Assembly: GCA_963748815.1 (NCBI GenBank)
Contig: CAVVKJ010000010.1
Location: 192,001 to 256,000 of the forward strand
DNA length: 64,000 nucleotides
Direction of reading: 5' to 3'
Source of the DNA: an uncultured Gemmatimonadales bacterium
GTDB lineage: Bacteria; Gemmatimonadota; Gemmatimonadetes; Gemmatimonadales; GWC2-71-9
The notes under the pieces: generated by a model
Told to the model about the DNA's origin: nothing
The model's database searches: none
Seen by the model: the letters and a program-made list of their open reading frames with translations, nothing else
Part shown: positions 31,774-46,875 of the stretch, piece by piece
Layout of the letters: the number at the start of each line of letters is the position of its first letter
Position numbering within the stretch: the first letter of the stretch is position 1
Program-made: the position numbers and the translations under genes

Positions 31774-31787
31774 CCCCCGCCGCTCTA

Positions 31788-31816
31788 TTGCCGGAACCGG
31801 GGCCATGTCCTATGAT
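31788..31816 (+). promoter_or_regulatory. Putative sigma70 promoter upstream of the rne/rng leader
   Basis: TTGCCG-N17-TATGAT. Confidence 0.55.
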
Positions 31817-32219: not shown

Positions 32220-33821
32220 GTGAAGCGCGAAATTCTCATCAATGGAGGCCGGCGGGAGACCCGCGTGGCCATCCTCGAGGACGATCGGCTCGTCGAGCTC
32301 CTCTACGACCGTCCTGATCAGCGCCGTTCCCTCGGCGACATCTACCTCGGCCGCGTCGACGCGGTCCTCCCCGGCATCCAGGCCGCCTTTGTAGACATCG
32401 GCCTGGAAAAATCGGCGTTCCTGCACGCCTCCGACCTCCTCGAACCCGAGGAGGACGACGACCCCGACGAAGATGATGTCGCGGACGTCCCCGATACCGA
32501 TGGCGCGGAAGCGTCCGCCGGGAACGGGCGGGACAAGGCCGCCCCGCGCCAGCGCGAGGTCGACCACCGGGCCGCCGTCCCCGACATCTCGGAGCTCCTG
32601 AAGAAGGGGCAGACCATCCTGGTGCAGGTCACCAAGGAGCCGATCAGCACCAAGGGTTCCCGGGTGACCGCGCAGATTTCCCTCCCCGGTCGATTCCTGG
32701 TCTACATGCCCTTCGCGTCCCGCGTGGGCGTCAGCCGCAAAATCGAGAGCCGAGAGGCCCGCTCCAAGCTCCGGGAGATGGTCCGCAAGGCGCTGCCGGA
32801 CGATGCCGGCGGCGTCATCGTCCGCACCGTGGCCGAAGGGGTGACGGAGGAACAGGTCACCCGCGAAATCGAGTCGCTCCTCGGCCTGTGGAAGAAGATC
32901 AACCGGAAAAAGGGGTTCGTGAAGGCGCCGGCCCTGGTGCAGCGGGAAACCAGCCTCACCCGCGGGATCATTCGCGACCTCTTCAGCGCGAAGGTGGACG
33001 CGCTGCACGTCGACTCCAAGGAACTGTTCAACGAGGTGGAGCAGTACCTCGAGCAGGTCGACCCCGACCTGATGCAGCGGGTGCACCACTACACCGGCGA
33101 CCAGCCGCTCTTCGACAAGTTCGACATCGAGTCGGAAATCCGCGACCTCTTCAAGCCGCGCTGCGAGCTCCCCACCGGCGGGTCGATCATCATCCAGCCG
33201 ACGGAAGCGCTCGTCTCCATCGACGTGAACACCGGCCGCTACACCGGCAAGAAGGATCCGGAGAAGACGATCCTCCGCACCAACATGGAGGCGGCCAAGG
33301 AAATCGCGCGGCAGCTCCGGCTGCGGGACGTCGGCGGCATCATCGTCTGCGACTTCATCGACATGGACACCCGGTCCAACCGGGAAAAGGTGCTGCAGGA
33401 GCTGCGGACCCATCTGGCCCGGGACCGGGCCCGGACCAAGGCCTTTGCCGTCTCGGAACTGGGCCTGATCGAGATGACCCGCCAGCGGGTCCGGCCGTCG
33501 CTCTGGGCCTCCCAGACCACCGAGTGCCCCACCTGCGCCGGCAGCGGCCGGGTCTTCAAGCCGGAAATCGTCACCCGCCGGCTGGAGCGGTCGCTCCGTC
33601 GGGCGGGCCACGAGCACCGGGAACGCCAACTGGCCGTCCGGCTCCACCCCGAGGTGGCCATCTACATGCTGGAGGAGGAGCCGAAGCTCCTCCAGGCCCT
33701 GATCCGGGCCACGGGGCTGGAGCTGGAGCTCCGGGACGACCCGATGATGCGGCTCGACGAATTCCGGCTCATGAGCCGGCCCGGGGGCCGGGACGTGACT
33801 GAGCTTTACGCTGTCGCGTGA
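32220..33821 (+). CDS. Rne/Rng family ribonuclease (RNase G-sized)
   Basis: GDIYLGRV...LPGIQAAFVDIG, VQVTKEPISTKG, IDVNTG, ARQLRLRDVGGIIVCDFIDM, CPTCAGSG; GTG start after GAGG. Confidence 0.93.
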   Translation: MKREILINGGRRETRVAILEDDRLVELLYDRPDQRRSLGDIYLGRVDAVLPGIQAAFVDIGLEKSAFLHASDLLEPEEDDDPDEDDVADVPDTDGAEASAGNGRDKAAPRQREVDHRAAVPDISELLKKGQTILVQVTKEPISTKGSRVTAQISLPGRFLVYMPFASRVGVSRKIESREARSKLREMVRKALPDDAGGVIVRTVAEGVTEEQVTREIESLLGLWKKINRKKGFVKAPALVQRETSLTRGIIRDLFSAKVDALHVDSKELFNEVEQYLEQVDPDLMQRVHHYTGDQPLFDKFDIESEIRDLFKPRCELPTGGSIIIQPTEALVSIDVNTGRYTGKKDPEKTILRTNMEAAKEIARQLRLRDVGGIIVCDFIDMDTRSNREKVLQELRTHLARDRARTKAFAVSELGLIEMTRQRVRPSLWASQTTECPTCAGSGRVFKPEIVTRRLERSLRRAGHEHRERQLAVRLHPEVAIYMLEEEPKLLQALIRATGLELELRDDPMMRLDEFRLMSRPGGRDVTELYAVA

Positions 33822-33870
33822 AGCGGCGGGGCCGCAGGGCAGCGGGGCAGGGGGCAGGGCGGCAGAAGAT

Positions 33871-33928
33871 CGTCATTCCCGCGAAAGCGGGAATCCAGAT
33901 GCTGGACCCCCGCTTCCGCGGGGGTGAC
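33871..33928. repeat. REP doublet variant
   Basis: CGTCATTCCCGCGAAAGCGGGAATCCA-GATGC-TGGACCCCCGCTTCCGCGGGGGTGAC, flanked by GGGGCAG-type short repeats. Confidence 0.8.
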
Positions 33929-34022
33929 CTCGCTGGCGAGGGGAAGGGCAGGTTGGCCGAGGGCAGGGGCAGGTTGTCCTCGGGGCGGACTGCCCGGCGT
34001 CCCCGCTGGCCCGCTTCCCCGC

Positions 34023-34051
34023 TTGACCTAACGCCTGCCCCCGGCTAGACT
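34023..34051 (+). promoter_or_regulatory. Putative sigma70 promoter of rplU-rpmA
   Basis: TTGACC-N17-TAGACT. Confidence 0.65.
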
Positions 34052-34094
34052 TCAGGGCTTGCAACGGAACCACCTTTTGGCAACGAGTTGAGTC

Positions 34095-34409
34095 ATGTAC
34101 GCGATTTTCAAGGCGCTGGGAAAGCAATTCCGTGCGGAGAAGGGCAAGGTCGTGCGCCTTCCGCTTATGGAAGCCGAGCCCGGCTCCAAGGTCACCTTTG
34201 ACGAGGTGCTCCTGTCGTCCGATGGTACCACGGTCAAGGCCGGCACCCCGTTGGTCAAGGGCGCCAAGGTCACGGCCGAGGTCGTGGGCGACGGCAAGGA
34301 AAAGAAGATCTACGTCTTCAAGTTCAAGCGGCGGAAGGGCTATCGCCGGAAGACCGGTCACCGCCAGAAGTTCACCGAAGTTCTGATCACCGACGTCAAG
34401 GTAGGGTGA
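34095..34409 (+). CDS. rplU: 50S ribosomal protein L21
   Basis: [13 protein letters not shown]...[16 protein letters not shown]. Confidence 0.97.
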
Positions 34410-34416
34410 GGCTCTC

Positions 34417-34683
34417 ATGGCTCATAAAAAGGGCGTAGGCTCCAGCCGCAACGGCCGCAACAGCAATCCGCAGTACCTCGGCATCAAGAAGTTCGGTGGC
34501 GAGAACGTGATTGCCGGCAACATCCTGGTCCGCCAGCGGGGCACCGTCATCCATGCCGGCAAGAATGTCGGCCAGGGCACCGACGACACCCTCTTCGCCA
34601 AGGTCGATGGCGTGGTCAAGTTCGAGTACCGCGACAAGGGCCGGAAGAAGGTCTCGGTCTACCCGAAGGAAGCCACCGCGTAG
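34417..34683 (+). CDS. rpmA: 50S ribosomal protein L27
   Basis: [14 protein letters not shown]...[10 protein letters not shown]. Confidence 0.98.
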
Positions 34684-34705
34684 GCCAGGGTTTCGGGAAG
34701 CAAAT

Positions 34706-34742
34706 GGGGGATGCGGCCAGCGCCGCATCCCCCTTATTATTG
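34706..34742 (+). terminator. Rho-independent terminator after rpmA
   Basis: 12-bp stem GGGGGATGCGGC / GCCGCATCCCCC with a 4-nt loop, followed by TTATTATT. Confidence 0.8.
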
Positions 34743-35213: not shown

Positions 35214-35960
35214 CTACAGTCCGGTGCTGGAGACCAGTTCGAACTTCAGCGGGGCGCCGCTCATCTCCACTTTCAGGACGGTGTGCGGCGCCCGCTTGAG
35301 TATCAGGAACTCAACGTTGGTCGCCCCTCCCGACAACCGGGCCCGGTAGGCGTCGAAGGCGCCTGCAGGCACCATGGCGGTCTCTTCCCCCAGCACGTAC
35401 AACACCATCTCCGTCACCGAGTTTGTCCCCGCGCTGTACATCCAGAAATTCCATCCCGCCCCCTTCGCCCACGGGAGGGAGGGGAGCAGGGCCTGGACCG
35501 CGTTGTCGTCGACCGTCCCCGGCGGCACGGTGGTGTCCACCGCAAAGTGATTCGGTCCGGAGGACGTCACCGCCTGGACGTTGCCCGTCACCCGGCCGTC
35601 GGCATAGCTGACGTCGATGCCGCCCTCGATGTCGCGAATCATCCCCGATTGCTTCACCCGCCGGACCTGCCCCTCCTTCGTCATGCTGAGGGTGGTTTCC
35701 TGCAGCATCGCGGTCCCGATCACGGTCAGCTCGTGCACGACGAGGCTGTCGCCCTGTTGCTGCAGCCCCCAGACACTGGTTCCCATCGCCTGGTTGTTGA
35801 CGAGCACCACCATGCTGTCCCGGTGCGGGGTCAGGCGCTTGGTCTCGATCGGCAGCGGCCGGGTGAGCGACGGCCCCGCCGGCGCGGCGGGGTCCTGGGC
35901 GGCGGCGGTGCTGACGGCGACGAGGGCGAGTGCCCCGAGTGCGGCGAGCGTGTGGCGCAT
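35214..35960 (-). CDS. Secreted beta-rich hypothetical protein (DUF3108-like)
   Basis: Signal peptide MRHTLAALGALALVAVSTAAAQ; GEETAMVPAGAFDAY motif; AGGAG RBS. Confidence 0.7.
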   Translation of the reverse strand: MRHTLAALGALALVAVSTAAAQDPAAPAGPSLTRPLPIETKRLTPHRDSMVVLVNNQAMGTSVWGLQQQGDSLVVHELTVIGTAMLQETTLSMTKEGQVRRVKQSGMIRDIEGGIDVSYADGRVTGNVQAVTSSGPNHFAVDTTVPPGTVDDNAVQALLPSLPWAKGAGWNFWMYSAGTNSVTEMVLYVLGEETAMVPAGAFDAYRARLSGGATNVEFLILKRAPHTVLKVEMSGAPLKFELVSSTGL

Positions 35961-35982
35961 CACGGCAGGCTCCTGGTGGTGA

Positions 35983-36846
35983 TCAGCGGGTGATGGTGGG
36001 AAAGAGCCGGAGGCTCGTGTCCGACAGGACGGCCCGCTGCAGCTCGGCGGGAAGGGGAAGCGCACGAAAGGCGTCGAGGTTCTTCCGCAAATCGTGCACG
36101 CCAGGACTCGGCCAATCGGTGCCCCAGATGGTTTTGTGACCGATGTCCGACAGGCGGGGAAAATACTCGAGGAGTCGCGCCGGCGGGATCCCGGAGAGCT
36201 CGAGGTAGACGTTCGGGTGCCGGCGCAGCACGAAGAACGCCTCCTCCATCCAGAGGGGCCGCCCGCCATGGGCCATCACGATCGTCAGGTTCGGATAGTC
36301 GATCGCGACGTCGTCGATTTCCATCGGATTGCCCCACTTGGACCGCGCCCCGGGGAAGATGCTCGTCCCGGTGTGGATCAGCACGGGCAGCCCCCGCTCC
36401 TCGCAACGGCGGTAGATCCGTCCCAGCGCCTCGAGTCCCTCGGTGTAGGCGTTCGCCGGGTACAGCTGGTGTGGCGGATGAATCTTGAGGCAGCGGATGC
36501 CCATCGCGATCAGGCGGTCGACGTCGCCTTCGGGGTCGGTGGTGAACCGCGCGTGGACGCCGCCGTAGGGCAGGATCCGCTCCGGGTCGGCTTCGGCGTA
36601 GCGGGCGGAAAATTCGTTGGTGGAGTCGTCAAACCCCATCAGGTCGGGGCTCGGATAGTTGATGAGCGCCACCCGCCAGACACCGGAGGCGTCCATCACC
36701 TCGAGCAGCGCCTTGGGATCGTCCATCAGGGCGATGAGCCGCTCCCAGTGCGCTTCCTTGCCGACCCGCATGACATCCGCCACCGCCGGCTTCAGTTGCC
36801 GCCACGGCTGGATGTGGATGTGCATGTCGGATATGGGGTAGGTCAT
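35983..36846 (-). CDS. Amidohydrolase family 2 protein
   Basis: DMHIH, LKIHP, LPVLIHTG, VMAHGG, WGTDWP. Confidence 0.9.
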   Translation of the reverse strand: MTYPISDMHIHIQPWRQLKPAVADVMRVGKEAHWERLIALMDDPKALLEVMDASGVWRVALINYPSPDLMGFDDSTNEFSARYAEADPERILPYGGVHARFTTDPEGDVDRLIAMGIRCLKIHPPHQLYPANAYTEGLEALGRIYRRCEERGLPVLIHTGTSIFPGARSKWGNPMEIDDVAIDYPNLTIVMAHGGRPLWMEEAFFVLRRHPNVYLELSGIPPARLLEYFPRLSDIGHKTIWGTDWPSPGVHDLRKNLDAFRALPLPAELQRAVLSDTSLRLFPTITR

Positions 36847-37625
36847 CGACCCTGGAACTCCGCCGGCCGCTTCCCCAGAAACGCCGCGACGCCTTCCGCC
36901 TTGTCCTCGCTCGAGAACGCCAGCCCGAAGAGCGTCGTCTCCTGCCGCAGTCCCTCGTCGAGCGGCATCCGCAGCGAGGCGCGCACCGCCTCCTTGATCA
37001 GCTGCAGCGCCACCGGGCTCTTCTGCGCGATGCTCTCGGCCATCGCCATGGCCCGGGTGCGCAGCTCGGCGGCGGGGACGACTTCGTCCACCAGCCCGAT
37101 CCGGAGTGCCTCGGCGGCGTCGATGAGGTCGCCGGTGAAGAGCAGCTTGTACGCCGCTCCGGTGCCGACCAGGCGCGGGAGTCGCTGGGTGCCGCCGCCG
37201 CCGGGGATGATGCCAAGGTTCACTTCCGGTTGCCCCAGCCTGGCGGTGTCCGACGCGATCCGGATGTCGCAGGCCATCGCGAGTTCACAGCCCCCGCCGA
37301 GGGTGAAGCCGTTGAGCGCCGCGATGACCGGCTTCGGGAAGCTGTCCACCGCGTCAAAGATGGTGCGTCCCGACATTACCCGGAACTGGTCAATCGGGCT
37401 CCGGCCCTCGAATTCCGAGATATCCGCACCGGCCACGAACGCCTTGTCGCCGGCGCCGGTGATCACCACCGCCCGCACGCTGGCGTCGGTGCGGAGCTCG
37501 TCGAGCAGGCCGAGGAGCTGGCAGCGGGTGGCGCCGTCGAGCGCGTTGCGCTTCTCGGGGCGGTTGATGATCAGGAGGGCGACGCGCCCGTGCGTCTCCC
37601 TGAGGACGTTCTGTGGTTCGCTCAT
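36843..37625 (-). CDS. Enoyl-CoA hydratase (PaaF/crotonase-like)
   Basis: INRPEKRNAL, AFVAGADI, GGGCELAMACD, GQPEVNLGIIPGGGGTQRL. Confidence 0.92.
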   Translation of the reverse strand: MSEPQNVLRETHGRVALLIINRPEKRNALDGATRCQLLGLLDELRTDASVRAVVITGAGDKAFVAGADISEFEGRSPIDQFRVMSGRTIFDAVDSFPKPVIAALNGFTLGGGCELAMACDIRIASDTARLGQPEVNLGIIPGGGGTQRLPRLVGTGAAYKLLFTGDLIDAAEALRIGLVDEVVPAAELRTRAMAMAESIAQKSPVALQLIKEAVRASLRMPLDEGLRQETTLFGLAFSSEDKAEGVAAFLGKRPAEFQGR

Positions 37626-38488
37626 GATTGGGACCAGTCGTAGAAGCCGTGGCCGCTCTTCTTCCCGAGCTTTCCCTCGGCGACGAGGCGGCGGAGGATG
37701 GCCGGGGGCGCGAAGCGGTCCGTGCCCAAAGCCTGGTGAAGGTACTCGGCAATGCGGAGCCGGATGTCGAGGCCGACGAGGTCCGTCAGCTTGAGCGGGC
37801 CCATGGGGTGGTTGTATCCCAGCTCCATGGCGCGGTCGATGTCCGCGGCGCTCGCGACCCCCTCCTCGAGCATCCGCATCGCCTCGAGGCCGAGGGCGAT
37901 GCCCAGCCGGCTCGAGGCGAAGCCGGGCGTGTCGCGCACGACGATCGGTTCCTTCCCCATCGCCCGGACCACCGCGAGGGCGTCGGCCTGTGCCGCGTCG
38001 TCCGAGTCGGCGTGGACGACGATCTCGACCAGCTTCATCAGGTGCACGGGATTGAAGAAATGCATCCCGATGAGCCGCTCGGGTCGGGGCAGGTCGGCGG
38101 CGATGGCGCCGATCGACAGCGAGGAGGTGTTGGTGGCGAGAAGCGCCGAGGGTTCGGCCCAGTCGCTGGCCTGGCTCATCACGTCGCGCTTCACGTTCAG
38201 GTCTTCGAGGACGGCTTCGATCACCAGGTCGGCACCCTGGCAGGTGGCGCGCATGTCCGGCGCCGTCCGCAGGCGTCCGAGGATGGCGTCGCGGCCCGCG
38301 GCGTCGAGCTTGCCGCGCTGCACCGCGCCGTCCAGCGTCCTGGCGATCCGGTCGAGCGCCCCCTTGAGGGCGTCCGGGCGGGCGTCGGTCAGGGTAGTGG
38401 GCCACCCTGCCGTGGCGGCCGCCTGGGCAATGCCGGCGCCCATGGTGCCGGCGCCGATCACGGCGACTCGGGTCGGAAAGGCGCTCAT
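37622..38488 (-). CDS. 3-hydroxyacyl-CoA dehydrogenase (PaaH/Hbd-like)
   Basis: VIGAGTMGAGIA, ATNTSSL, GMHFFNP, HPMGPL, GKKSGHGFY. Confidence 0.93.
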   Translation of the reverse strand: MSAFPTRVAVIGAGTMGAGIAQAAATAGWPTTLTDARPDALKGALDRIARTLDGAVQRGKLDAAGRDAILGRLRTAPDMRATCQGADLVIEAVLEDLNVKRDVMSQASDWAEPSALLATNTSSLSIGAIAADLPRPERLIGMHFFNPVHLMKLVEIVVHADSDDAAQADALAVVRAMGKEPIVVRDTPGFASSRLGIALGLEAMRMLEEGVASAADIDRAMELGYNHPMGPLKLTDLVGLDIRLRIAEYLHQALGTDRFAPPAILRRLVAEGKLGKKSGHGFYDWSQS

Positions 38489-39159
38489 GCCGCCACCGCC
38501 AGCCGGTCGGGGAAGTTGCCGCAGAGGCCGTCCACGCCCATGAGACCGAGGCGTGCCGCGGCCACGCGGTCATTAACGGTCCAGGCGATCAGGCGCGCGC
38601 CGGCAGCGTGCACGGCCTCCACGAGTTCCTGGTCGATCATCGTCCATTCCTGCCAGAGCGTCGTAGCCCGCGCGAGGCGAAGGACGCCCGCCGGGTCCAT
38701 CACCCGCGCCGCCAGCAGCGCCCCAAGCGGGAGGCTCGGGCGCCGTCGCGCCAACCGTGCGGTGATGCGGTGGTCGAAGCTGTGGACGGCATAGCGGGCG
38801 GGGAAGGGACCGGCGTCGAGAACGGCGAGGAGCGCCGCGTCGTGCCGAGGCGGCAGCGCCTTGACCTCGACCCAGACGTCCCGGTCGCCGATCAGCTCCA
38901 GCGCGGTCGCGAGCGACGGCACCGGTTCGCCGTTGGAAAGGAGCGCCGCCGAGGCTTCGGCCATGGTCAGCGTCTCCAGGGGACGGCCCCCAGTGAGGAC
39001 GGGATCGTGGTGCACCACGATCCCGCCGTCCGCGGTGGCGTGGACGTCAAGCTCGACGCCGTCCACGCCGCGGGCGACCGCCTCACGGAAGGCGGCCGGT
39101 GAGTTCTCAAACGCGTAGCCGGAGGCGCCCCGATGGGCGATCACCAGCGGCCGCGTCAG
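38485..39159 (-). CDS. Glycerophosphodiester phosphodiesterase family protein
   Basis: IAHRGAS..ENS, VELDV, VVHHD, WTVND; start is either CTG 39159 or GTG 39144. Confidence 0.85.
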   Translation of the reverse strand: MTRPLVIAHRGASGYAFENSPAAFREAVARGVDGVELDVHATADGGIVVHHDPVLTGGRPLETLTMAEASAALLSNGEPVPSLATALELIGDRDVWVEVKALPPRHDAALLAVLDAGPFPARYAVHSFDHRITARLARRRPSLPLGALLAARVMDPAGVLRLARATTLWQEWTMIDQELVEAVHAAGARLIAWTVNDRVAAARLGLMGVDGLCGNFPDRLAVAA

Positions 39160-40286
39160 TTGTTCTCCTCCAGCTTCCGCGCCTCGATCCAGTCCGGCTC
39201 GTCGAGCAGGTCCTTGAGGAGGGTTCGGTCGGCGTCGTTCGGCAAGACCGACTCGAGATACGCCGGGTAATGCTCGGCGGACAGGGGCTCGCCGGTGATC
39301 GTGAAGTGCTGGCGCGCGTACAATCCGATCTTGCGGTTGAACTTCACGTCGGGGACGACCAGGTACTGGTCCTGGTCGGGGATGGCCGTGTTGAGTCGGT
39401 CCACGAGCCGCGTGATTTCCTGCCGGTAGAGTTCGCGGCTGGCTTCGTTGAGGTGCGCCACGTTCGCGCCCTCGGGCGCTTCGCGCTCGTCGAACCGGCC
39501 CTTCAGTCCCCAGACATACGCCCAGTGGGCGCTGGAGGAATTGTCGGTGCCGAAGAGGTCGAACGCGGTGGGCACCCACTTGTTGAAGTAGCGCTGCATC
39601 ACCTCGGGCGGCACGCGGCCGGCCCGGAGGATCCGGCGCAGGCCGTTGTTGCCGGTGCCGAGGTGGAAGCTTTCCTCCTTGAGCATCGGGCCCATCGAAC
39701 GGGCCAGCGGGTGGAACGAGGAGGTGGAGAGCATCTGCAGCTGGAACTTGCCGTCGCGGTCGATGAACTGGGTGTAGGTGAAGAAGTCGAGCCAGTTCTC
39801 CACGATCTCGTTGAACGACCCGAGGAGGCGCTCCCCTTCCTCCGCCCGGCGGTCGAGCAGCTTCTGCGCCTCGCGCTTCCCTTCGTCGCCGAAATGGGTG
39901 CACAGGAGGTAGGACATCTGCCACCCGTGCCGCATCTCCTCGCTCATGACGCGCATCAGGGAGAAGAGGTCGTAGTCGCTCGGGGCCCGCTCCAGCAATT
40001 GCCGCTGCTGCTCCACCGACGCGAATTCGGTGTCGCCCTGGAAGACGATCAGGTTGAGCAGCGCGTCCCGGATCCGCTGGTCGGGAATGTGCATGATCGT
40101 CGGCCACTTGGTCTGGCCCTTGTAGTGACCGAACTCGATCGTCTCGGCTTCCGGCTCGCCGAACTTCGCGTCGAACCCGACCTTCCGGAATGGCGTGCCG
40201 GCCATCTCCTTTTCGGAGATGCCGATCGAATCCTGCCAGTAGCGGAAGTAGTCGATCCAATCGTCGAAGTTGTTCACTTTCCGCAT
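39156..40286 (-). CDS. BoxB-like ferritin-fold di-iron aromatic-CoA epoxidase (short form)
   Basis: QGDTEFASVEQQ, EEMRH, FIDRDGKFQL, EESFH (two ExxH motifs), WGLKGR. Confidence 0.85.
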   Translation of the reverse strand: MRKVNNFDDWIDYFRYWQDSIGISEKEMAGTPFRKVGFDAKFGEPEAETIEFGHYKGQTKWPTIMHIPDQRIRDALLNLIVFQGDTEFASVEQQRQLLERAPSDYDLFSLMRVMSEEMRHGWQMSYLLCTHFGDEGKREAQKLLDRRAEEGERLLGSFNEIVENWLDFFTYTQFIDRDGKFQLQMLSTSSFHPLARSMGPMLKEESFHLGTGNNGLRRILRAGRVPPEVMQRYFNKWVPTAFDLFGTDNSSSAHWAYVWGLKGRFDEREAPEGANVAHLNEASRELYRQEITRLVDRLNTAIPDQDQYLVVPDVKFNRKIGLYARQHFTITGEPLSAEHYPAYLESVLPNDADRTLLKDLLDEPDWIEARKLEENN

Positions 40287-40293
40287 GTCGTCC

Positions 40294-41098
40294 TCACCGT
40301 CCGTGAAATTTGGGAACCCGCCTGGCGTGGTACGCCTCCAGCCCTTCGGCGGCGTCCGTGCTTGAAAAACATTCCTGGCAATGGCGGGCCTCGATGACCA
40401 GCGACTCCGCCAGCGTCGTCGATTCCGCCTCGCGCACCGCCCGCTTGGCCAGCCGCGCGGCGATCGGCGGCAGCGCCGCGAGGCGCGCGGCCCAGAGGGC
40501 CGTCTCGTGCGCGATCAGGTCGTCGGCCACCACCCGGTTGACCAGCCCGATCTCGAGGCAGCGGTCGGCGGGCAGCATCTTCGGCGTCCAGAGCAGTTCG
40601 AGCGCCGCGGCGCTTCCGACCAGGCGAGGCACGAACCAGCTGGTGCCGAAATCGGGATGCAGGCCCAGCCGGTGAAAGACCAGCCCGAGCGACGCGCTCG
40701 CTGCCGCGATCCGGAGGTCACAGGCCAGCGCCAGCCCGACCCCACCACCGGCCGCGGGACCGTTCAGGCTCGCGAGAACCGGCTTGGGGGCCCGATGAAG
40801 CAGCTGCACCACCTCGGAGCCGGTCCGGACCAGGGCCATCGCCTCGGCCTCGTCGATCGATCCCCCCGTCCCGGCGAGGGTATCGAGGTCGGCGCCCGCA
40901 CAAAACCCCCGCCCGCTCCCGGTCAGGACAATCGCGCGCACCCGGCTGTCGGCCGACATCGACCGGACCGCCTCGCCCAGGCTCGGCGAGCATCCCCACG
41001 TCGAACGCGTTGAGCCGCTCCGGGCGGTTGAGCGTGATGGTGCCCACCCCCTCGGCGATCTCCGCCAATACCGCGTCCTTGAGACCCACATCCTGCAT
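40294..41098 (-). CDS. Enoyl-CoA hydratase/isomerase, PaaG-like (frameshift near 40990)
   Basis: TITLNRPERLNAF, FCAGADL, GPAAGGGVGLALACD, GLHPDFG (Asp-type isomerase motif). Confidence 0.85.
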
Positions 41099-41118
41099 AG
41101 GAATCCTCGCCTCAGTCC

Positions 41119-42312
41119 TCAGTCCTCGATCCTCTCAAACACCGTCGCGATCCCTTGCCCCACACCGATGCACATCGTCGCCAGTCCGTATCGGCCGCCG
41201 GTGCGCCTGAGCGCGTGAATGAGCGTCGCCGCCATCCGGGCGCCGCTGGCGCCGAGGGGATGCCCCAGAGCGATCGCACCGCCCGATACGTTGACGCGCC
41301 TGCCGTCGAGGCCGAGTTCGCGGATGCAGGGAACTGCCTGCGCCGCGAACGCCTCGTTGAGTTCGATGAGGTCGAGATCCTTCACCGTCATGTTGAGCCG
41401 GGCCAGGAGCTTCTGCGTCGCCGGGATCGGGCCGAGGCCCATGCAGCTCGGATCCACCCCGGCCACCGCCGTGCCGACGATCCGGGCGATCGGCGTCAGG
41501 CCGTGCGCCTCGACGGCGGCAGCGCTGGCAATGCCGAGGGCGGCCGAGCCGTCGTTGATGCCGCTGGAGTTGCCGGCGGTGGCCGTGCCGCCCTTGGCGA
41601 AGGCCGGCTTGAGCCTGGCCAGTCCGGCTTCGGTCACGTCGGGACGAGGGTGCTCGTCCGCGGTGACGGGATCCTTGGTGCCGGGGCCGGTGACCGCCAC
41701 GAGTTCGTCGTTGAAGTGACCAGCGTCCATGGCCACCTTGGCGCGGCGCTGGCTCTCGGCCGCGAACGCATCCTGCTCCTCGCGGGTGACGCCGTGCAGC
41801 TGCGCAACCTTCTCCGCGGTCTGGCCCAGCGAGATGGTCCACTCCTCCGGCATCGCTGGATTGATGAACCGCCATCCGACGGTGGAGTCCGAGACCTGGG
41901 GAGTGCTCCGGTCCCACGCGCTGCCGCTCTTCAGCGTGATGTAGGGCGCGCGCGTCATGCTTTCGACGCCGCCGGCGACGAACAGGTGTCCCTCGCCCGC
42001 CTTGATGGCATGGGCGGCGCTGGCAATGGCCTGCAGGCCGGAGCCGCAGAGGCGGTTGACCGTCTGCCCCGGCACCTCGATCGGGAGGCCCGCCAGCAGC
42101 AGGGCCATCCGGGCCACGTTGCGATTGTCCTCGCCAGCCTGGTTGGCGCAGCCGAGGATGACATCGTCGATCTTGTCGGCGGGAAGGCCGCCGCGTTCGA
42201 CCGCCGCGCGGATGGCGATGGCGGCCAGGTCGTCGGGTCGGACGCCTGCCAGCGCCCCACCGGCCCGGCCGATGGGGGTCCGCACCGCCGAGACGACGAA
42301 CGCCTCGGTCAC
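41119..42312 (-). CDS. 3-oxoadipyl-CoA thiolase-like (PcaF/PaaJ family)
   Basis: [56 protein letters not shown] overlap. Confidence 0.92.
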
Positions 42313-43742
42313 AGCGCGATCCAGACCGTCTTCGACTCGGTGTACCCCTCGAGGGCGGTGCGTCCGAGATCCCGGCCGAATCCCGACTGCTTGTAGCCGC
42401 CGAACGGCGCCGCCGGGTCGTACATGTTGTAGGTGTTGACCCAGACGGTGCCGGCGCGGATGGCGTGTGCCACCCGGTGGGCGCGGCCGATGTCGCGGCT
42501 CCAGACGCCGGCCGCCAGCCCGTACATCGACTGGTTGGCGAGGGCGACGGCCTCGTCCTCGTCGTCGAAGCCGAGCACGGCGAGCACGGGGCCGAAGATT
42601 TCCTCGCGCGCGATGGTCATCTCGGGCGTGACGCCGTCGAAGACCGTCGCCTCGACGAAGTAGCCCTTGCCGTTGACCGTGGCGGCGTTGCCGCCGGCGA
42701 CGACCGTGGCGCCCTCTGACTTTCCGATGCCGATGTACTTGAGCACGCTCTCCTGCTGCTGCTTCGAGACGATCGCGCCGAGGCGGGTCGATTTCTCGAA
42801 GGGGTCGCCGGGCACCAGCTTCTTGCTCCGTTCCGCGAGCTGCTCGACCACCTGGTCCTTGACCTTGCGGTGGACCAGCAGACGGCTGCCGGCGGCGCAG
42901 ACTTCGCCCTTGCCGTAGAAGATGCCGGTCTGCGCGCCGCGCACGGCGGCCGCGAGGTCGGCGTCGTCGAAGATGATGTTCGGGCTCTTGCCGCCGAGCT
43001 CGAGGGTCAGCCGCTTCACGGTGTCGGCGGCGTCCTTCATGATCCGCTGGCCGACGGCGGTGGAACCGGTGAAGGAGATCTTGTCCACGCCGGGGTGCCG
43101 CACCAGCGCGGAGCCGGCGGTGGAGCCGTGCCCCGGCACCACGTTGAACGCGCCGGCGGGGAGCCCGGCCTCGGCAAAGATGTCCGCCATCAGCAGCGCC
43201 GTCAGCGGCGTTTCGGAGGCGGGCTTGAGGACGACGGTGCATCCTGCCGCCAGCGCCGGCGCAAACTTCCACCCGGCCAGGTTGAGCGGGAAGTTCCACG
43301 GCACGATGGCGCCGACCACGCCGATCGGCTCATGCCGGATGTAGGTCAGGAAGTTGCCGTCGACCGGGACTGTTTCGCCGCCGAACTTGTCGCACCAGCC
43401 GGCGTAGTAGCGCAGGGTCTCGACGGTGGACGAGACGTCGATCTTCGATTCGAAGAGCGGCTTCCCGTTCTGGCGCGTTTCCAGTTCCGCCATTTCGGGC
43501 AGGCGGGCCGCGAGGAGCTCCGCCGCCTTGTAGAGCATGGCGCCCCGCTTCCGGGCCGACAACCCGCGCCACTCCGCCGACTCGAAACAGGCGCGGGCGG
43601 CCGCCACCGCCCGGTCGACGTCGGCGGCATCGCCTTCCGCCACCGAGGCCAGCACTTCCTCGGTGGCGGGATTGATCACGTCGAACCGCCGGCCGTTCGC
43701 GGCCGGGGCCCAGGCGTTGTCGATGAAGAGGTCGGTCCGCAC
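42309..43742 (-). CDS. Aldehyde dehydrogenase
   Basis: [40 protein letters not shown]. Confidence 0.95.
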
Positions 43743-43745
43743 GGA

Positions 43746-44579
43746 CTACTTGGCCTCGAAGTTGGGCATCCGCTTCTCGACGTACGCGGCCAGCCCCTCC
43801 TTGGCGTCGGACGACTGGAACAGCTGCTGCTGCAGCTCCCGCTCGAGGGTGAGCGCGCTCTCGAAGGGGAGGTCCATGCCGGACTGGACGCTCCGCTTGA
43901 TGGCGCCGACCGCCTTCGAGGCCTTGTTGGGCGGGCAGAACTGCTTGGCGTACATCAGCACCTGGTCCCAGTAGCCGTCCTTCTCGAAGACGTGGTTGAC
44001 CAGCCCCATCTCCTCGGCCTTCTCGAAGGAGAAGGTCTCGCCGGTCACCATGAACTCGATCGACTTGGACTTGCCGATGAGCCGGCAGAGGCGCTGGGTC
44101 CCGCCGGTGCCGGGGAGGACGCCGAGGTTGACCTCCGGGAGCCCGATCTTGCCGGCGTTCCGGCAGGCGATCCGGATGTCGCAGGCCATCGCGATTTCGA
44201 GCCCGCCGCCGACGGTGTGGCCGTTGAGCGCCGCGATGGTCAGCTTGGGGGTCTGCTCGAGGCGGCTCAGCGTCTCGTTGGCATGGAGGCAGAAGAAGTA
44301 CTTGAAACGCGGGGTGACGTTGTTCAGCATCGAGATGTTGGCGCCCGCCGAGAAGAACTTCTCGCCGTGGCCGCGGATCACGATGACGTGCGCCTCGTCG
44401 GCCATGCGGGCGTCGAGGATGGCGGCGTCCATCTGCCGGAACATCTCGTAGGTGTAAGTGTTGGCCGGGGGGTCGTTGAGCGTGATGATGGCGAGCCCGT
44501 CGCGGACCTCGTAGTTGACGAGGACCTTGTCGGTGTGCGCCGGGGCGCCGGGACGTGGGGAGGTCAGGGTAGCGGTCAA
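43746..44579 (-). CDS. Crotonase-family protein resembling the BoxC N-terminal domain
   Basis: GANISML...FKYFFCLHANETL, GGGLEIAMACD, LPEVNLGVLPGTGG; GGAGG 8 nt before TTG 44579. Confidence 0.8.
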   Translation of the reverse strand: MTATLTSPRPGAPAHTDKVLVNYEVRDGLAIITLNDPPANTYTYEMFRQMDAAILDARMADEAHVIVIRGHGEKFFSAGANISMLNNVTPRFKYFFCLHANETLSRLEQTPKLTIAALNGHTVGGGLEIAMACDIRIACRNAGKIGLPEVNLGVLPGTGGTQRLCRLIGKSKSIEFMVTGETFSFEKAEEMGLVNHVFEKDGYWDQVLMYAKQFCPPNKASKAVGAIKRSVQSGMDLPFESALTLERELQQQLFQSSDAKEGLAAYVEKRMPNFEAK

Positions 44580-44583
44580 GGGG

Positions 44584-45189
44584 TCATCCTCCGAGCGTGG
44601 CGACCAGTCGTGGGGTCGCATGGTGAGCAGCGATGAAGCCATCCAGGAAGAGCGAGGCCAGTTCCTCGGCCAGTGTGGCCGGCGAAGTCGGGCCCGCCGG
44701 GTGATACCAGGTGTAGATCCAGTTCATCATGCCGAAGAGCGCGTAGGCCGCGATGTGCGGGTCGGCGTGCGCGCCGGGCACGTCACCCAGGAGCGCTTCG
44801 AGCAGGCCGACATATTCCTTCTTGCGCCGGCGGATCTGCGCCCGCATGGTGCCGGTGAGCTCGGCTTCCTCGTGGGCCAGGACCTTCATCTCGTCCATGT
44901 GCGCGGCGAAGAAGGTCACGTGGTGCTGAATGAAGGCGCGGAGCCGCGATTCCGGGTCGCTGTCGTCGGCGAGCGCCTCGTGGGCTCCTTCGAGCACCAG
45001 CGCGAAGCACCGGTCCTGGATCTGGAAGAGCAACTCCTCCTTGCTCTCCATATAATGGTACATCCCGGCGAGGCTGAACCCGCTGGCCCGGGCCAGGTCG
45101 CGCATGGACGTAGCGTGGTAACCCCGCTCCGCAAAAGTCCTTGCGGCGGCGGCGAGGAGGGTCTCCAGGCGCTGGTCATATGGCTGCAT
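44584..45189 (-). CDS. TetR/AcrR regulator (PaaR/KstR2-like)
   Basis: FAERGYHATSMRDLA..SGFSLAGMYHY..SKEELL HTH; FGMMNWIYTWY. Confidence 0.92.
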   Translation of the reverse strand: MQPYDQRLETLLAAAARTFAERGYHATSMRDLARASGFSLAGMYHYMESKEELLFQIQDRCFALVLEGAHEALADDSDPESRLRAFIQHHVTFFAAHMDEMKVLAHEEAELTGTMRAQIRRRKKEYVGLLEALLGDVPGAHADPHIAAYALFGMMNWIYTWYHPAGPTSPATLAEELASLFLDGFIAAHHATPRLVATLGG

Positions 45190-45197
45190 GTACCGTC

Positions 45198-45211
45198 CGA
45201 ACGATCGTTCG
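45198..45211. promoter_or_regulatory. TetR operator palindrome
   Basis: Perfect 14-bp palindrome CGAACGATCGTTCG lying between the predicted -10 and the tetR ATG. Confidence 0.75.
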
Positions 45212-45215
45212 AAGG

Positions 45216-45244
45216 AAGTTATCCGACTTATTGGGTCGGGTCAA
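45216..45244 (-). promoter_or_regulatory. Sigma70 promoter of the tetR/box-like operon
   Basis: On the minus strand TTGACC-N17-TAACTT. Confidence 0.7.
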
Positions 45245-45284: not shown

Positions 45285-45833
45285 ATGCCATCCTTGACCG
45301 GGCTCGACGGGCCAACGGACGCCGCCCTCGCGGCGGCGTGGCGGGCGGGAAGCGAGCAGGCGGCCACCGACCTGGTCCGGCGGCACGCGTCCGCCCTTGC
45401 CCGGTTCCTCGGCGGGGCCGGAGCCGGGCCCAGCGAGGTGGAAGACCTGACCCAGGAAGCGTTCTTCAAGGCCTTCCGGGGGATCGAGGGGTGGCGAGGG
45501 GAGTCCTCGTTTCGGAGCTGGCTGTTCAGCATCGGGTCGAACCTGCTCAAGGACGCCTATCGGAAGCGGAAGGGCAGGGTGGTCTTGTCCATCGAGGACC
45601 ACGATATGCCGGTGCATCGCGATCCGGGTGACGAGATGGTGGCCGAGGAAACGGCGGCGCGGATCCAGGGGGGACTGACGGGCCTGCCCCGCCTCCAGCG
45701 GGAGGTCTTCCTCCTTCGGGTTCAGCAGGACATGGACTACAGGGAGATTGCCGAGTCACTCGGCACGACGGCCGGGGCGGCACGGGTGCACTATCATCAT
45801 GCGGTCAAGCGGTTGAAGGAGCTGGTACCATGA
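45285..45833 (+). CDS. ECF RNA polymerase sigma factor
   Basis: EDLTQEAFFKAF, SFRSWLFSI, LPRLQREVFLL...YREIAESL. Confidence 0.92.
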   Translation: MPSLTGLDGPTDAALAAAWRAGSEQAATDLVRRHASALARFLGGAGAGPSEVEDLTQEAFFKAFRGIEGWRGESSFRSWLFSIGSNLLKDAYRKRKGRVVLSIEDHDMPVHRDPGDEMVAEETAARIQGGLTGLPRLQREVFLLRVQQDMDYREIAESLGTTAGAARVHYHHAVKRLKELVP

Positions 45834-46360
45834 CCTGTCAGGAACTGTCGGACAAAATGCCGGGCGTGGCCAGGGGGGAGACCTCCTGGACCGACGCGGA
45901 GGCCCTGCACCTCGGCTCCTGCGCCGACTGCCGCGCGGAATGGGCGGTCGTCTCGGCGGCGGCGACGCTGGCCGACGAGGTGGCGGTCGACGCCGATGCA
46001 CTGGCGGAGCGAGTCCTCCTGCGGCTGCGCACCGAACCGGTTGTGAAGCGATTCCCCCGCCCACGCTGGATCGCGGGAATCGCGGCAGTCGCGGCCGCAG
46101 TCCTGCTGATCTCGAAAGCGGTCACCACCGCACCGCTGCCCCGCAGCCCCGCGGCCCCGCTGTCAGGCCCTGCTGCCCCGCCGACGACCCTCGGGGCCGT
46201 CGATATCCCCGGCCTCCACGCCCTCGGCGAGGCGGGGCTCGCCGAAGTGCTCGAATCGATGGCCCCGGAATGGACAGATACACCGACGATCGACACACCG
46301 AGCCTCGACGACCTGGATCCCCGGGAACTCGAGCAGGTCCAGCGCCTCTGGGAGAGCTGA
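45830..46360 (+). CDS. Zinc-binding anti-sigma factor (HxxxCxxC) with TM helix
   Basis: MTCQE...HLGSCADC, one TM; ATGA overlap with the sigma gene. Confidence 0.8.
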   Translation: MTCQELSDKMPGVARGETSWTDAEALHLGSCADCRAEWAVVSAAATLADEVAVDADALAERVLLRLRTEPVVKRFPRPRWIAGIAAVAAAVLLISKAVTTAPLPRSPAAPLSGPAAPPTTLGAVDIPGLHALGEAGLAEVLESMAPEWTDTPTIDTPSLDDLDPRELEQVQRLWES

Positions 46361-46875
46361 TGCGACGACTTGGATGGTTCCTCACGGCGGCGTTCCTCCT
46401 GGCGGTGCCGCCCCTTAGCGCACAGGACGCCGGCGACGACTCGCCGCAGGCCGTTCGGATGCGCCAGCAGATCGAGCAGCGCTTTGCGCAGCAGATCCAG
46501 GCCAATCTCGGGCTGACGGACGAGCAGGCGGTCAAGCTGCGGGCCACCTTCAACACCTACGCGCCGAAGCGGCGGGCGATGGAGCAAGAGGAGCGCGCCA
46601 TCAAGCAGGGGCTGCAGGGGCAGCTGCGGCCGGGGATCGCCGCCAACTCCGACAGCGTCGCCAAGCTGGTGGATCGGCTCCTCGAGGTGAAGGTCGCCTA
46701 TGCGCAGAGCTTCGTGGACGAGAACCTGGAGATGGCGAAGTACCTCACGCCGGTGCAGCGGGCCCAGTTCCAGGTGATGCGGGAGCGGCTGATGGCGCGC
46801 ATCGAGGAGGTGCGGCAGCAGCGGCAGCAGCAGTTCCGTCAGCAGCAGGGGGCGCCGGGGGCGCAGCAGCCGTAG
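46360..46875 (+). CDS. Periplasmic Spy/CpxP-like helical protein
   Basis: Signal peptide; LGLTDEQ and YLTPVQ (LTxxQ) motifs; third gene of the ECF trio. Confidence 0.75.
   Translation: MRRLGWFLTAAFLLAVPPLSAQDAGDDSPQAVRMRQQIEQRFAQQIQANLGLTDEQAVKLRATFNTYAPKRRAMEQEERAIKQGLQGQLRPGIAANSDSVAKLVDRLLEVKVAYAQSFVDENLEMAKYLTPVQRAQFQVMRERLMARIEEVRQQRQQQFRQQQGAPGAQQP

Follow-up and report, generated by a model that had tools for sequence, protein, structure and literature searches.

The operon at positions 35983..45244 of the window (the whole 64,000-nucleotide stretch that was analysed, from an uncultured Gemmatimonadales bacterium) probably encodes a compact, BoxA-less aerobic benzoyl-CoA epoxide pathway that would be fed by ferredoxin. 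The canonical Box pathway consists of the di-iron epoxidase BoxB, the reductase BoxA, the two-domain BoxC and a BoxR/BzdR regulator, and the Paa pathway uses PaaABCE. The operon comprises ten genes on the minus strand, as are all features located below, with neighbours overlapping or nearly abutting. Their order is tetR, ECH1 crotonase, aldehyde dehydrogenase (ALDH), thiolase, ECH2, di-iron protein, GDPD, hydroxyacyl-CoA dehydrogenase, ECH3 and amidohydrolase, with domain calls, in the same order, of TetR_N plus TetR_C_24, ECH_1, Aldedh, PcaF-type thiolase, ECH_1, PaaA_PaaC, GDPD, 3HCDH, ECH_1 and Amidohydro_2. Coordinates and family calls agree with the packing and order given in a preliminary description of the locus and, as it also stated, none of the ten genes encodes a reductase, PaaB, PaaC, PaaE or a CoA ligase. 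Its proposal of a minimal Box variant gains support as well, since the di-iron protein does not fall within the canonical BoxB clade and is distant from PaaA, and neither boxA nor a full boxC was found in the source genome (86% complete). A literature search found no published description of this operon type.

The operon is kept across Gemmatimonadales, and its conservation is not due to chance. A synteny survey covered 75 Gemmatimonadota loci, related genomes that count as kin rather than as independent cases. In the 52 loci whose sequence extends sufficiently upstream, tetR, ech1, aldh and the thiolase gene were each present in 52 and ech2 in 51 (it is missing from one relative, L005); in the 63 with sufficient downstream sequence, gdpd was found in 63, hcdh in 62, the amidohydrolase gene in 61 and ech3 in 32. 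The short-BoxB variant was detected in 44/200 Gemmatimonadota genomes, its PaaABCD-like counterpart in a further 50, and short BoxB forms in 8/151 Acidobacteriota. A DUF3108 gene (35214..35963, PF11306), whose position varies in relatives or which is absent from them, is probably a neighbour rather than a member of the pathway.

The di-iron protein (376 aa; 39156..40286; PaaA_PaaC, TIGR03225) is a predicted short BoxB-type aryl-CoA epoxidase that would act on benzoyl-CoA. The BoxB-type motifs noticed earlier, QGDTEFASVEQQ and DRDGKFQL, are both there, and the protein is indeed shorter than typical BoxB (about 470 aa), to which it is 38% identical. It scored 227 bits with the BoxB profile TIGR03225 (cut-off 499) and 44 bits with the PaaA profile TIGR02156 (cut-off 280). 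Its AF2 model (pLDDT 91.5) matched ten BoxB chains with TM values of 0.85-0.90 (E about 1e-21), reaching 0.90 with benzoyl-CoA-bound BoxB, against 0.53-0.54 for PaaA and 0.34-0.41 for R2lox and desaturase. The six BoxB iron ligands listed in PMC5489048 (E120, E150, H153, D211, E240 and H243) are all kept, as E87, E117, H120, D176, E205 and H208. The same text gives Q116, T119, S123, F193, F203, F206 and T210 as the benzoyl pocket, of which the first five are kept (Q83, T86, S90, F158 and F168) and the last two differ (Y171, F206Y; I175, T210I); F206Y and T210I/V are fixed across the short clade. Among the 120 best homologues, at least 70% identical, the ligands are near-invariant, and 119/120 keep all six together with the Q/T/S/F/F residues. 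In a quick tree with SH-aLRT values only, the canonical BoxB rows formed a group with support 99 and all short forms fell outside it. Canonical PaaA has H, S and G at the positions of Q116, T119 and S123 in 4/4 rows, whereas the short BoxB has Q, T and S. PaaA was also considered as the identity of the protein and was rejected on its profile score and on the lack of the H-x-x-S-E-x-x-G helix. The idea of a hybrid with Paa gains no support for the oxygenase, which is BoxB-type.

Ring cleavage with release of formate would fall to ECH1 (43746..44579), a single-domain crotonase that resembles the N-terminal domain of BoxC and is a putative epoxide dihydrolase. ECH1 is 38% identical to residues 76-221 of M. 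rhizoxinica BoxC and keeps the equivalents of Cys111, which we take to be catalytic, Glu146 and Glu168. According to PMC4498308, these two glutamates are the catalytic ones and the N-terminal domain is the sole active domain of BoxC. The K..FC...NE motif and both glutamates occur in 67/68 homologues, and ECH1 groups with BoxC domains (SH-aLRT 98). It is the best match to the BoxC model TIGR03222 in the source genome (76 bits, cut-off 712), as are its counterparts in 15/15 other genomes; a full two-domain BoxC was found neither in the 86%-complete source genome nor in these 15, six of which are single-contig. Motif identity and the lack of a closer BoxC relative lead us to read ECH1 as the epoxide hydrolase. 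ECH1 is also present in 18/25 Acidobacteriota carrying canonical-length BoxB, in some Acidobacteriota it adjoins full-length BoxC, and it lies near a full BoxC in loci L177, L179, L180 and L181, so that its part as a BoxC substitute is putative and it may do something other than cleave the ring. Of the half-size BoxC proposed earlier, the match to the catalytic N-terminal half stands, and substitution for BoxC is a suggestion from sequence. The closest solved sequence, 2PPY, is annotated merely as an enoyl-CoA hydratase. The preliminary description did not remark on the start of ECH1, which is probably TTG 44579 (277 aa) and not the ATG inside tetR (298 aa).

In the proposed route, the short BoxB, with its BoxB fold and iron ligands, would use O2 and two electrons at the di-iron centre to form 2,3-epoxybenzoyl-CoA, from which ECH1 would make 3,4-dehydroadipyl-CoA semialdehyde and formate. 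The semialdehyde would be oxidised by the ALDH (477 aa; 42309..43742; PF00171) in a putative BoxD role; its best NCBIfam matches, StyD and BADH, are both below cut-off, and no BoxD/PaaN model is among the best 25 of its 44 matches. Judging from the enzyme families, the double bond would then be moved by ECH2 and hydrated by ECH3 or another crotonase, and the hydroxyacyl-CoA dehydrogenase and thiolase would yield succinyl-CoA and acetyl-CoA. ECH2 (40294..41098; ECH_1) is a PaaG-like enoyl-CoA isomerase without either of the two hydratase glutamates; the optional ECH3 (36843..37625) is a PaaF/crotonase-like hydratase with both; the dehydrogenase (288 aa; 37622..38488; 3HCDH) is PaaH-like; and the PcaF/PaaJ-type 3-oxoadipyl-CoA thiolase (397 aa; 41119..42312) scored 552 bits with PRK09050 (cut-off 605) and 540 bits with TIGR02430 (cut-off 597). 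The GDPD-family phosphodiesterase (38485..39159; PF03009), which probably starts at a CTG and would then have about 224 aa, was not seen in Acidobacteriota versions of the operon. The Amidohydro_2 protein (287 aa; 35983..36846; PF04909) may be a lactonase or may hydrolyse a pathway intermediate in another way: in Nonomuraea, boxC is followed by a 34% relative, and this locus gave no match to the alpha/beta-hydrolase that other box clusters have. For the lower Box steps, absent from the box clusters described so far according to PMC6449761, the operon supplies candidate genes. A separate observation, missed in the preliminary description, is one extra base at 40985 that shifts the ECH2 frame in this assembly. 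It is absent from two public contigs (runs X1, X3), and ECH2 is in frame without it in four close relatives (L002, L003, L004 and L006); the frameshift is probably an assembly error.

The earlier claim of TetR control is borne out: a TetR-family repressor (201 aa; 44584..45189; TetR_N + TetR_C_24) heads the operon, and a conserved palindrome is its putative binding site. It would bind over the promoter and be released by an aryl-CoA. Promoter-like boxes were recognised by eye (45216..45244; -35 TTGACC and -10 TAACTT, 17 nt apart); they stay under the threshold of a consensus promoter scan, which returned 0 sites, and a similar TTGAC...TAnnnT layout lies upstream of tetR in many relatives. The palindrome, at 45196..45213 with the consensus TTCGAACG-N2-CGTTCGAA, had not been noted before. 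With at most 3 mismatches it was found upstream of tetR in 60/67 loci, some of them duplicates. The source genome has a single strong site, which scored 32 where the runner-up reached 17.3 and the weakest training site 17.9, and none ahead of hcr, bcr or ligase genes. The operator also precedes the canonical boxCB clusters L127, L128, L177, L180 and L181; such clusters are headed by the same operator and TetR subfamily (47% identity to the operon TetR in L177/L180), and one has a 721-bit benzoate-CoA ligase. A BoxR/BzdR XRE-shikimate-kinase regulator was not found in the source genome, which gave a kinase-domain match only (residues 132-292).

In line with the preliminary description, no BoxA was found and the electron donor would be unlinked. 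In the 86%-complete source genome, searches for BoxA (2x[4Fe-4S] + FNR) returned ferredoxin-domain matches only, PaaE and PaaK were not found (no TIGR02155 match), and the whole assembly had no PF00175 domain; full BoxA was found in 0/200 Gemmatimonadota and 0/44 Acidobacteriota/Rokubacteria genomes. Open reading frames for a stand-alone ferredoxin, PFOR, 2-oxoacid oxidoreductase and Rnf are present, and the electrons would most likely come from the cellular [4Fe-4S] ferredoxin pool and not from an FNR-type reductase. Benzoyl-CoA would be made off-operon, either by a benzoate/aminobenzoate ligase encoded elsewhere in the genome or by a CoA transferase. The search for aryl-CoA ligases found one such enzyme (C8:65743-67224; TIGR02262 481 bits, cut-off 375), situated in an aminobenzoyl-CoA monooxygenase cluster. 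A ligase above the TIGR02262 cut-off occurs in 59/94 module genomes, and 30/89 genomes with ECH1 and an HcrA-like protein have none.

A second source of benzoyl-CoA would most likely be 4-hydroxybenzoyl-CoA, reduced by a Mo enzyme resembling 4-hydroxybenzoyl-CoA reductase (HcrCAB) that accompanies the module in 89/95 genomes. Its genes are unlinked to the operon in the source genome (G000:C5:88532-92809). HcrA-like proteins were found in 41/44 short-BoxB genomes and 47/50 genomes with a PaaA/D/B/C-like epoxidase, against 11/104 with neither, and in 20/25 Acidobacteriota with canonical BoxA-less BoxB, as well as in 29/107 Acidobacteriota without a BoxB match. The genes are co-operonic in loci L074, L080, L168, L170, L171 and L172, and Acidobacteriota show this arrangement. 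The complex scored below the TIGR03193/4/5 cut-offs (181/258, 812/995 and 291/405 bits). Gln replaces the catalytic Glu (Glu726 position, presumably catalytic in 4-HBCR itself) in 14/14 Gemmatimonadales/Rokubacteria HcrA-like proteins, including that of the source genome, and this weakens a feeder role; the active-site glutamate is important across the whole Mo-enzyme family according to PMC11760930. We give production of benzoyl-CoA by this enzyme about an even chance.

The same complex could instead replace BoxA through the [4Fe-4S] cluster of its beta subunit, or remove excess epoxide or phenolics. Such a role is compatible with benzoyl-CoA as substrate. It would suit the association with both epoxidase types and with BoxA-less canonical BoxB, the 52/89 carriers without a class I benzoyl-CoA reductase to consume the expected product anaerobically, the position of the genes directly before boxC-boxB-ligase in the boxA-less Rokubacteria locus L183, their own TetR and the same operator in G065, and the invariance of C123, C139, C147 and C156 of the [4Fe-4S] loop (46 rows), with Gln in place of the catalytic Glu in this clade. 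We nevertheless hold it doubtful: according to PMC11760930, 4-HBCR acts as a sink for electrons rather than as their source; Glu is kept in Acidobacteriota and other Gemmatimonadota clades (16/16 rows), several of these proteins passing the TIGR03194 cut-off; some BoxA-less Box clusters lack the complex, namely in G144, G186, three of the genomes with short BoxB and five Acidobacteriota of the canonical type; and in the source genome the genes are unlinked and have no operator.

Action on a substituted benzoyl-CoA (for example hydroxy-, amino- or methyl-) as the real substrate, or epoxide formation at a different ring bond, with the Hcr-like enzyme handling a related substituted thioester, is unlikely: BoxC-type cleavage suits an unsubstituted 2,3-epoxide, and the operator is that of canonical boxCB clusters. 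The sub-cut-off scores of the Hcr-like and Bcr-like enzymes, the aminobenzoate setting of the only aryl ligase and the two fixed pocket changes speak for it. PMC5489048 also ties BoxB regioselectivity to the Thr210-Asp211 peptide, but that effect is one of the peptide backbone, and the other five pocket residues are kept. The evidence favours plain benzoyl-CoA over the different substrate suggested earlier, an alternative that the two pocket changes keep alive. Degradation of phenylacetyl-CoA, with the short BoxB standing in for PaaABCE and ECH1 plus ALDH for PaaZ, would fit the PaaG/F/H/J-like lower genes and a TetR regulator such as PaaR. In sister genera, a PaaA/D/B/C-like epoxidase takes the place of short BoxB in the same operon (50 genomes against 44, never both), as in G035 and G066. 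These PaaA-like proteins, however, stay at 112-132 bits where the cut-off is 280, make up a clade of their own and have a BoxB-type Q-x-D-T-E-x-x-S helix, and a Thermus relative adjoins a benzoate-CoA ligase family gene. Moreover, a PaaK-like ligase (at least 530 bits) occurs in only 2/94 module genomes, ECH1 is BoxC-like and not a hotdog-fold hydrolase, and BoxB is inactive on phenylacetyl-CoA according to PMC4498308, which together make this reading very unlikely. Hardly credible is a hydroxylase or desaturase of non-aromatic, perhaps lipid-derived, acyl-CoA, or an inactive relic. The constant presence of GDPD, the general acyl-CoA character of the three crotonases, dehydrogenase and thiolase, and the absence of a linked reductase would agree with it; the structural match to BoxB over R2lox and desaturase, the near-invariant ligands, the BoxC-specific motif of ECH1 and the shared operator do not.

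The cluster points to an as yet unstudied form of the pathway in bacteria that are common in the environment. To our knowledge, Box chemistry has been characterised almost only in Betaproteobacteria. Most family members carry the label 'phenylacetic acid catabolic protein' or score below HMM cut-offs, so that counts of aerobic benzoyl-CoA breakdown in these groups are probably too low, with part of it wrongly credited to phenylacetate. With the operon comes a minimal di-iron arene epoxidase, and the single-chain and hetero-complex enzymes found in one operon type form a natural pair for studying the divergence of BoxB and PaaABC. It also makes testable what reduces BoxB without BoxA and why an oxygenase is accompanied by an 'anaerobic' Mo enzyme. 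As speculation, which we think unlikely to hold as a whole, abundant uncultured phyla might epoxidise benzoyl-CoA FNR-free with a Glu-less Hcr-like complex as redox partner, the short BoxB and the PaaA/D/B/C-like complex being interchangeable, and short BoxB with half-size BoxC being ancestral to canonical BoxB and two-domain BoxC.

Among known systems, the A. evansii (Azoarcus/Aromatoleum) Box pathway is laid out in the same way, with a hydrolase, an ALDH and beta-oxidation enzymes. Its BoxB (BoxAB structures 3PER, 3PM5, 3PF7 and 3Q1G; TIGR03225) shares with the short form the single-chain di-iron fold, the six ligands, Q116/T119/S123/F193/F203 and the lack of a structural subunit. The short BoxB differs in being about 100 aa shorter (its N-terminus is both shorter and different, stretches of about 19 and 26-30 aa are deleted internally, and the C-terminal tail is missing), in F206Y and T210I, and in lying outside the canonical clade; the operon differs in having no BoxA, TetR in place of BoxR/BzdR and no linked ligase or transporter. 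ECH1 has FSAGANI.ML......K..FC...NET, both glutamates and the cysteine in common with the BoxC N-terminal domain, but is 277 aa long against 556, with a single crotonase domain, and sometimes adjoins full BoxC. With PaaABC(D)E of E. coli, Klebsiella and Thermus the operon shares the PF05138 family, PaaG/F/H/J-like lower enzymes and TetR control, and sister genera hold PaaA/D/B/C-like genes within this same operon; it lacks PaaB, C, D, E, K and Z, the single PF05138 match of the source genome leaving no separate PaaC, and its oxygenase has low structural similarity to PaaA and a BoxB-type substrate helix. Finally, T. aromatica HcrCAB (1RM6) is the best PDB match for the alpha and beta subunits of the Hcr-like complex (E 1.6e-176 and 3.4e-59) and shares the beta [4Fe-4S] loop, whereas the Hcr-like enzyme has Gln at Glu726 and is tied to oxygenases, often without benzoyl-CoA reductase.

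The ten minus-strand genes at 35983..45244 are closely spaced and run in the order tetR, ech1, aldh, thiolase, ech2, di-iron gene, gdpd, hcdh, ech3 and amidohydrolase. The tight packing reported in the preliminary description is real, and family profile scans bore out its gene family calls. A genome scan matched at least 592 relatives, of which the best 80 loci, 75 of them titled Gemmatimonadota, were used. As the proposed synteny survey revealed, the gene set is conserved across Gemmatimonadota: tetR, ech1, aldh and thiolase were found in 52/52 loci reaching far enough upstream and ech2 in 51/52, while the 63 loci reaching far enough downstream carried gdpd (63), hcdh (62), amidohydrolase (61) and ech3 (32). 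None of the 75 Gemmatimonadota loci had a match to BoxA, full BoxC, PaaE or a ligase, and neither ORF clustering of the 80 loci nor tblastn detected a linked reductase. At 40985 in the window, ech2 carries a surplus base, probably through an assembly error, because the base is absent from a near-identical contig of sequencing run X1 and a more distant contig of run X3, the frame is intact in four relatives, and further genes of the G000 assembly (the genome of the window) are broken by single-base shifts.

The gdpd gene (38485-39159), with a probable CTG start preceded by a GGAGG site, is fixed directly behind the oxygenase gene or ech2 in all Gemmatimonadota loci; GDPD has no known role in aryl-CoA breakdown. 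Upstream of the operon (45285-46875) lie divergent ECF sigma factor, anti-sigma-like and Spy/CpxP-like genes, likewise in many relatives. Downstream (30496-34728) are genes for acyl-CoA dehydrogenase and RNase E/G, together with rplU and rpmA; many relatives likewise have the latter pair close to the operon, as would be expected of a stable position in the chromosome.

The 376-aa di-iron protein (39156..40286), here called short BoxB, shares 38% identity with annotated canonical BoxB. Among PDB entries, A. evansii BoxB matches it best (E 2e-54), and PaaA reaches only E 2e-7. A structure model built from a 60-row alignment (pLDDT 91.5; a single-sequence fold with pLDDT 36 was set aside) gave TM scores of 0.85-0.90 when superposed on BoxB and of 0.53-0.54 against PaaA. 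Relative to the six iron ligands and seven pocket residues of BoxB listed in the available part of PMC5489048, short BoxB keeps 6/6 and 5/7, with F206 replaced by Tyr and T210 by Ile. The same residue set was found in 117 of 120 close homologues, two others having Val for Ile and one being gapped at two ligands. The protein is about 100 residues shorter than canonical BoxB: its N-terminus is reduced, two internal stretches are deleted and the C-terminal tail is missing. In the phylogeny that had been suggested, a quick maximum-likelihood tree with 61 rows and SH-aLRT support only (two unpublished loci and five rows that were partial or divergent had been dropped), PaaA and PaaC split from all BoxB-like rows with support 100, and canonical BoxB formed a 99-supported group without the short forms, which branch around it in no resolved order. 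The tree allows short BoxB to be an older form than the canonical one. A third BoxB-like class of 420-450 aa, at about 31% to the window protein, was seen in Acidobacteriota (L173-L176, in G210, G260, G284 and G272); it stands alone, away from ech1, which lies elsewhere in 9/9 such genomes.

ECH1, the single-domain crotonase at 43746..44579, aligned to BoxC residues 76-221 with 38% identity and has in common with BoxC the motif FSAGANI.ML......K..FC...NET and both glutamates, a combination that is incomplete in ECH2, ECH3 and the Thermus crotonases. The motif is present in 67/68 homologues, and a tree grouped ECH1 with BoxC domains against 14 other crotonases (support 98, with a long-branch warning). 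According to the accessible portion of PMC4498308, the N-terminal domain of BoxC alone is active. ECH1 was the best BoxC match in each of G000 and 15 other genomes, and full BoxC was found neither in G000 nor in 15/15 of the others. These data agree with the half-size BoxC of the preliminary description. Counting against that reading, ECH1 also occurs in 18/25 Acidobacteriota with canonical-length BoxB and lies near full boxC in four loci, where it may be a remnant since the arrival of boxCB or the enzyme of a separate step. The closest solved sequence to ECH1 is 2PPY, presumably from Geobacillus; Box chemistry has reportedly been demonstrated in Bacillus stearothermophilus PK1.

Six loci with PaaA-like genes (L121-L126) were inspected. 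In G035 and G066, PaaA/D/B/C-like epoxidase genes (L122:7798-10665 and L124:8125-11072) take the place of short BoxB, the order being operator, tetR, paaA-like, paaD-like, paaB-like, paaC-like, ech1, aldh, thiolase, ech2, gdpd, hcdh, ech3 and amidohydrolase, with neither short boxB nor a reductase in the operon. The PaaA-like proteins, at 112-132 bits, fall short of the cut-off (280) and form a separate clade with a Thermus plasmid protein. The BoxB-type Q-x-D-T-E-x-x-S helix is found in 4/4 aligned PaaA-like proteins (Ser for Gln in Thermus), whereas canonical PaaA has H/S/G at the positions of the BoxB-type Q/T/S. We infer that the two epoxidases would form the same epoxide. The PaaC-like subunit of G035 and G066, unlike proteobacterial PaaC, keeps 5/6 iron ligands. 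The Thermus cluster contains a benzoate-CoA ligase family gene; its crotonase (L137) was rejected as a half-size BoxC since the motif is missing, so this locus supports only the link between PaaA-like epoxidase and benzoate ligase.

Our survey covered 200 genomes of Gemmatimonadota with a completeness of 90% or more, G000 excluded and the unpublished G178 and G153 (short BoxB) and G093 (PaaA-like) included. Short BoxB was found in 44, a weak PaaA-like match in 50, canonical BoxB in 2 and no epoxidase in 104; two kinds together occurred in 0/200, at a threshold that can miss canonical PaaA. As kin are not independent, co-occurrence is given as counts, with no statistical test claimed. ECH1 accompanied short BoxB in 43/44 genomes, PaaA-like genes in 50/50 and canonical BoxB in 0/2, and was present in 2/104 with none of these. 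In the same order of classes, a ligase over the cut-off was found in 31/44, 28/50, 2/2 and 13/104, a PaaK-like protein of at least 530 bits in 2/44, 0/50, 2/2 and 13/104, and any BcrB match in 20/44, 16/50, 0/2 and 11/104. Full BoxA was found in 0/200, FNR-only matches being limited to four in one genus.

An HcrA-like subunit, from a Mo enzyme resembling 4-hydroxybenzoyl-CoA reductase, was present in 41/44 genomes with short BoxB, 47/50 with PaaA-like genes (39/42 and 46/49 minus the unpublished genomes), 0/2 with canonical BoxB and 11/104 without epoxidase, 7 of these 11 being higher-scoring copies alongside canonical Bcr. The 151 Acidobacteriota genomes, including the unpublished G228 and G350, comprised 8 with short BoxB, 25 with canonical-length BoxB, 9 with the intermediate 420-450-aa class and 2 with weak matches; HcrA-like proteins occurred in 8/8, 20/25, 4/9 and 2/2 of these, respectively, and in 29/107 others, and full BoxA in 0/44 tested. 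At L074, L080, L168 and L170-L172, hcr genes lie just 3' of short boxB on the same strand, and some of the Acidobacteriota loci of this kind also have CoA-transferase subunits and an amidohydrolase; a Rokubacteria locus (L183) has hcrAB, then boxC, boxB and a ligase. That the enzyme is a feeder supplying the pathway has, in our estimate, about an even chance. A role as redox partner or by-product recycler, the two taken together, appears possible yet less probable, and unrelated co-inheritance is rather unlikely. In a comparison of 32 loci, two of them without a match, the position of T. aromatica Glu726 in the alpha subunit is Gln in 14/14 Gemmatimonadales/Rokubacteria rows and Glu in the other 16; an excerpt of PMC11760930 describes the glutamate at this position as essential in the xanthine dehydrogenase family. 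A MazE/MazF-like pair was seen just upstream of hcrCAB-like genes in G134, in G187 and in G000, where it was the toxin gene that was observed.

A palindrome of consensus TTCGAACG-N2-CGTTCGAA lies upstream of tetR at 60/67 loci, some of them duplicates, with at most 3 mismatches. Five of the seven loci missing it are Acidobacteriota with canonical BoxB, and at L177 and L180 it stands ahead of boxC instead of tetR. The window palindrome (45196-45213) is the only strong site in G000 by a matrix trained on these same sites. In G065, hcrCAB is preceded by its own TetR and the same palindrome. Since none of the 150 of 384 operator matches listed for 40 genomes was near an hcrA match, co-regulation of hcr is apparent in G065 and the Acidobacteriota operons alone. 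Canonical boxCB clusters without boxA but with a TetR_C_24-type regulator and this palindrome were observed at L127, L128, L177, L180 and L181. A scan for sigma-70 promoters and terminators gave nothing above chance.

In line with the absence of BoxA noted earlier, neither BoxA, PaaK nor a second PF05138 gene was found in the 86%-complete G000, which also has no PF00175 (FNR-type NAD-binding) domain, present in 11/14 control genomes. A search for NuoE/NuoF-type reductases returned just one NuoF near nuo genes and a split RnfC. The suggested search for aryl-CoA ligases located a TIGR02262 ligase on another contig than the operon, inside an aminobenzoyl-CoA monooxygenase/reductase-type cluster (C8:59500-67240; L001:4491-12243) that comprises a monooxygenase in pieces, acyl-CoA dehydrogenase, crotonase, SDR, a creatininase-like gene and the aryl-CoA ligase. 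Also unlinked to the operon are hcrCAB-like genes (C5:88532-92809; L084:8533-12810), whose alpha subunit has the Gln of its clade at the active-site Glu position, and a PaaX-headed bcrCBAD-like cluster (C7:93748-101901; L120) that includes Oah-like and Had-like genes and scores below cut-off throughout. G000 further has a stand-alone [4Fe-4S] ferredoxin gene (C5, about 21586-21850) and PFOR, 2-oxoacid oxidoreductase, Rnf and formate-dehydrogenase-like genes, likewise unlinked, these being named by sequence motifs rather than HMMs. BcrB-like matches of the C7-cluster class occur in 36/200 genomes, 33 of these with the epoxidase module. A near-identical AMP-ligase and NYN-like gene pair at C18:24874-27557 and C12:24721-27209 is perhaps an assembly duplicate.

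Our observations extend to the genes and their conservation, the fold and its residues, the operator and the partners that were not found. Beyond these, the step order in the available parts of PMC6449761 and PMC4498308 suggests how the operon would act. Short BoxB would convert benzoyl-CoA, O2 and two electrons to the 2,3-epoxide, ECH1 would hydrolyse this to 3,4-dehydroadipyl-CoA semialdehyde and formate, and ALDH would carry out the following oxidation; isomerisation, hydration, oxidation and thiolysis would then yield succinyl-CoA and acetyl-CoA. The amidohydrolase may replace the lactonase of betaproteobacterial clusters. Small amounts of BoxA suffice, its transfer of electrons being transient (PMC4498308, in part), so a free [4Fe-4S] ferredoxin would be its simplest substitute.

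No description of short BoxB, half-size BoxC or the Hcr link was found in the full-text literature, most subscription papers and supplements lying outside this scope; the available portions of PMC12008989 and PMC9765128 contain nothing specific on them, and that of PMC13186573 mentions neither Gemmatimonadota nor BoxB. Benzoyl-CoA genes of some Gemmatimonadota are mentioned in an excerpt of PMC10581226, which does not name epoxidation, and canonical box clusters without BoxA are on record (PMC10803450, in part). Many homologues are labelled 'benzoyl-CoA 2,3-dioxygenase component B' by JGI, so the short BoxB family is already annotated, by label alone. The operon is not a member of Paa. It would work like Box without belonging to canonical Box, since it fails on BoxA, on two-domain BoxC, on BoxR and on the BoxB cut-off; it is a real, widespread variant of a known pathway.
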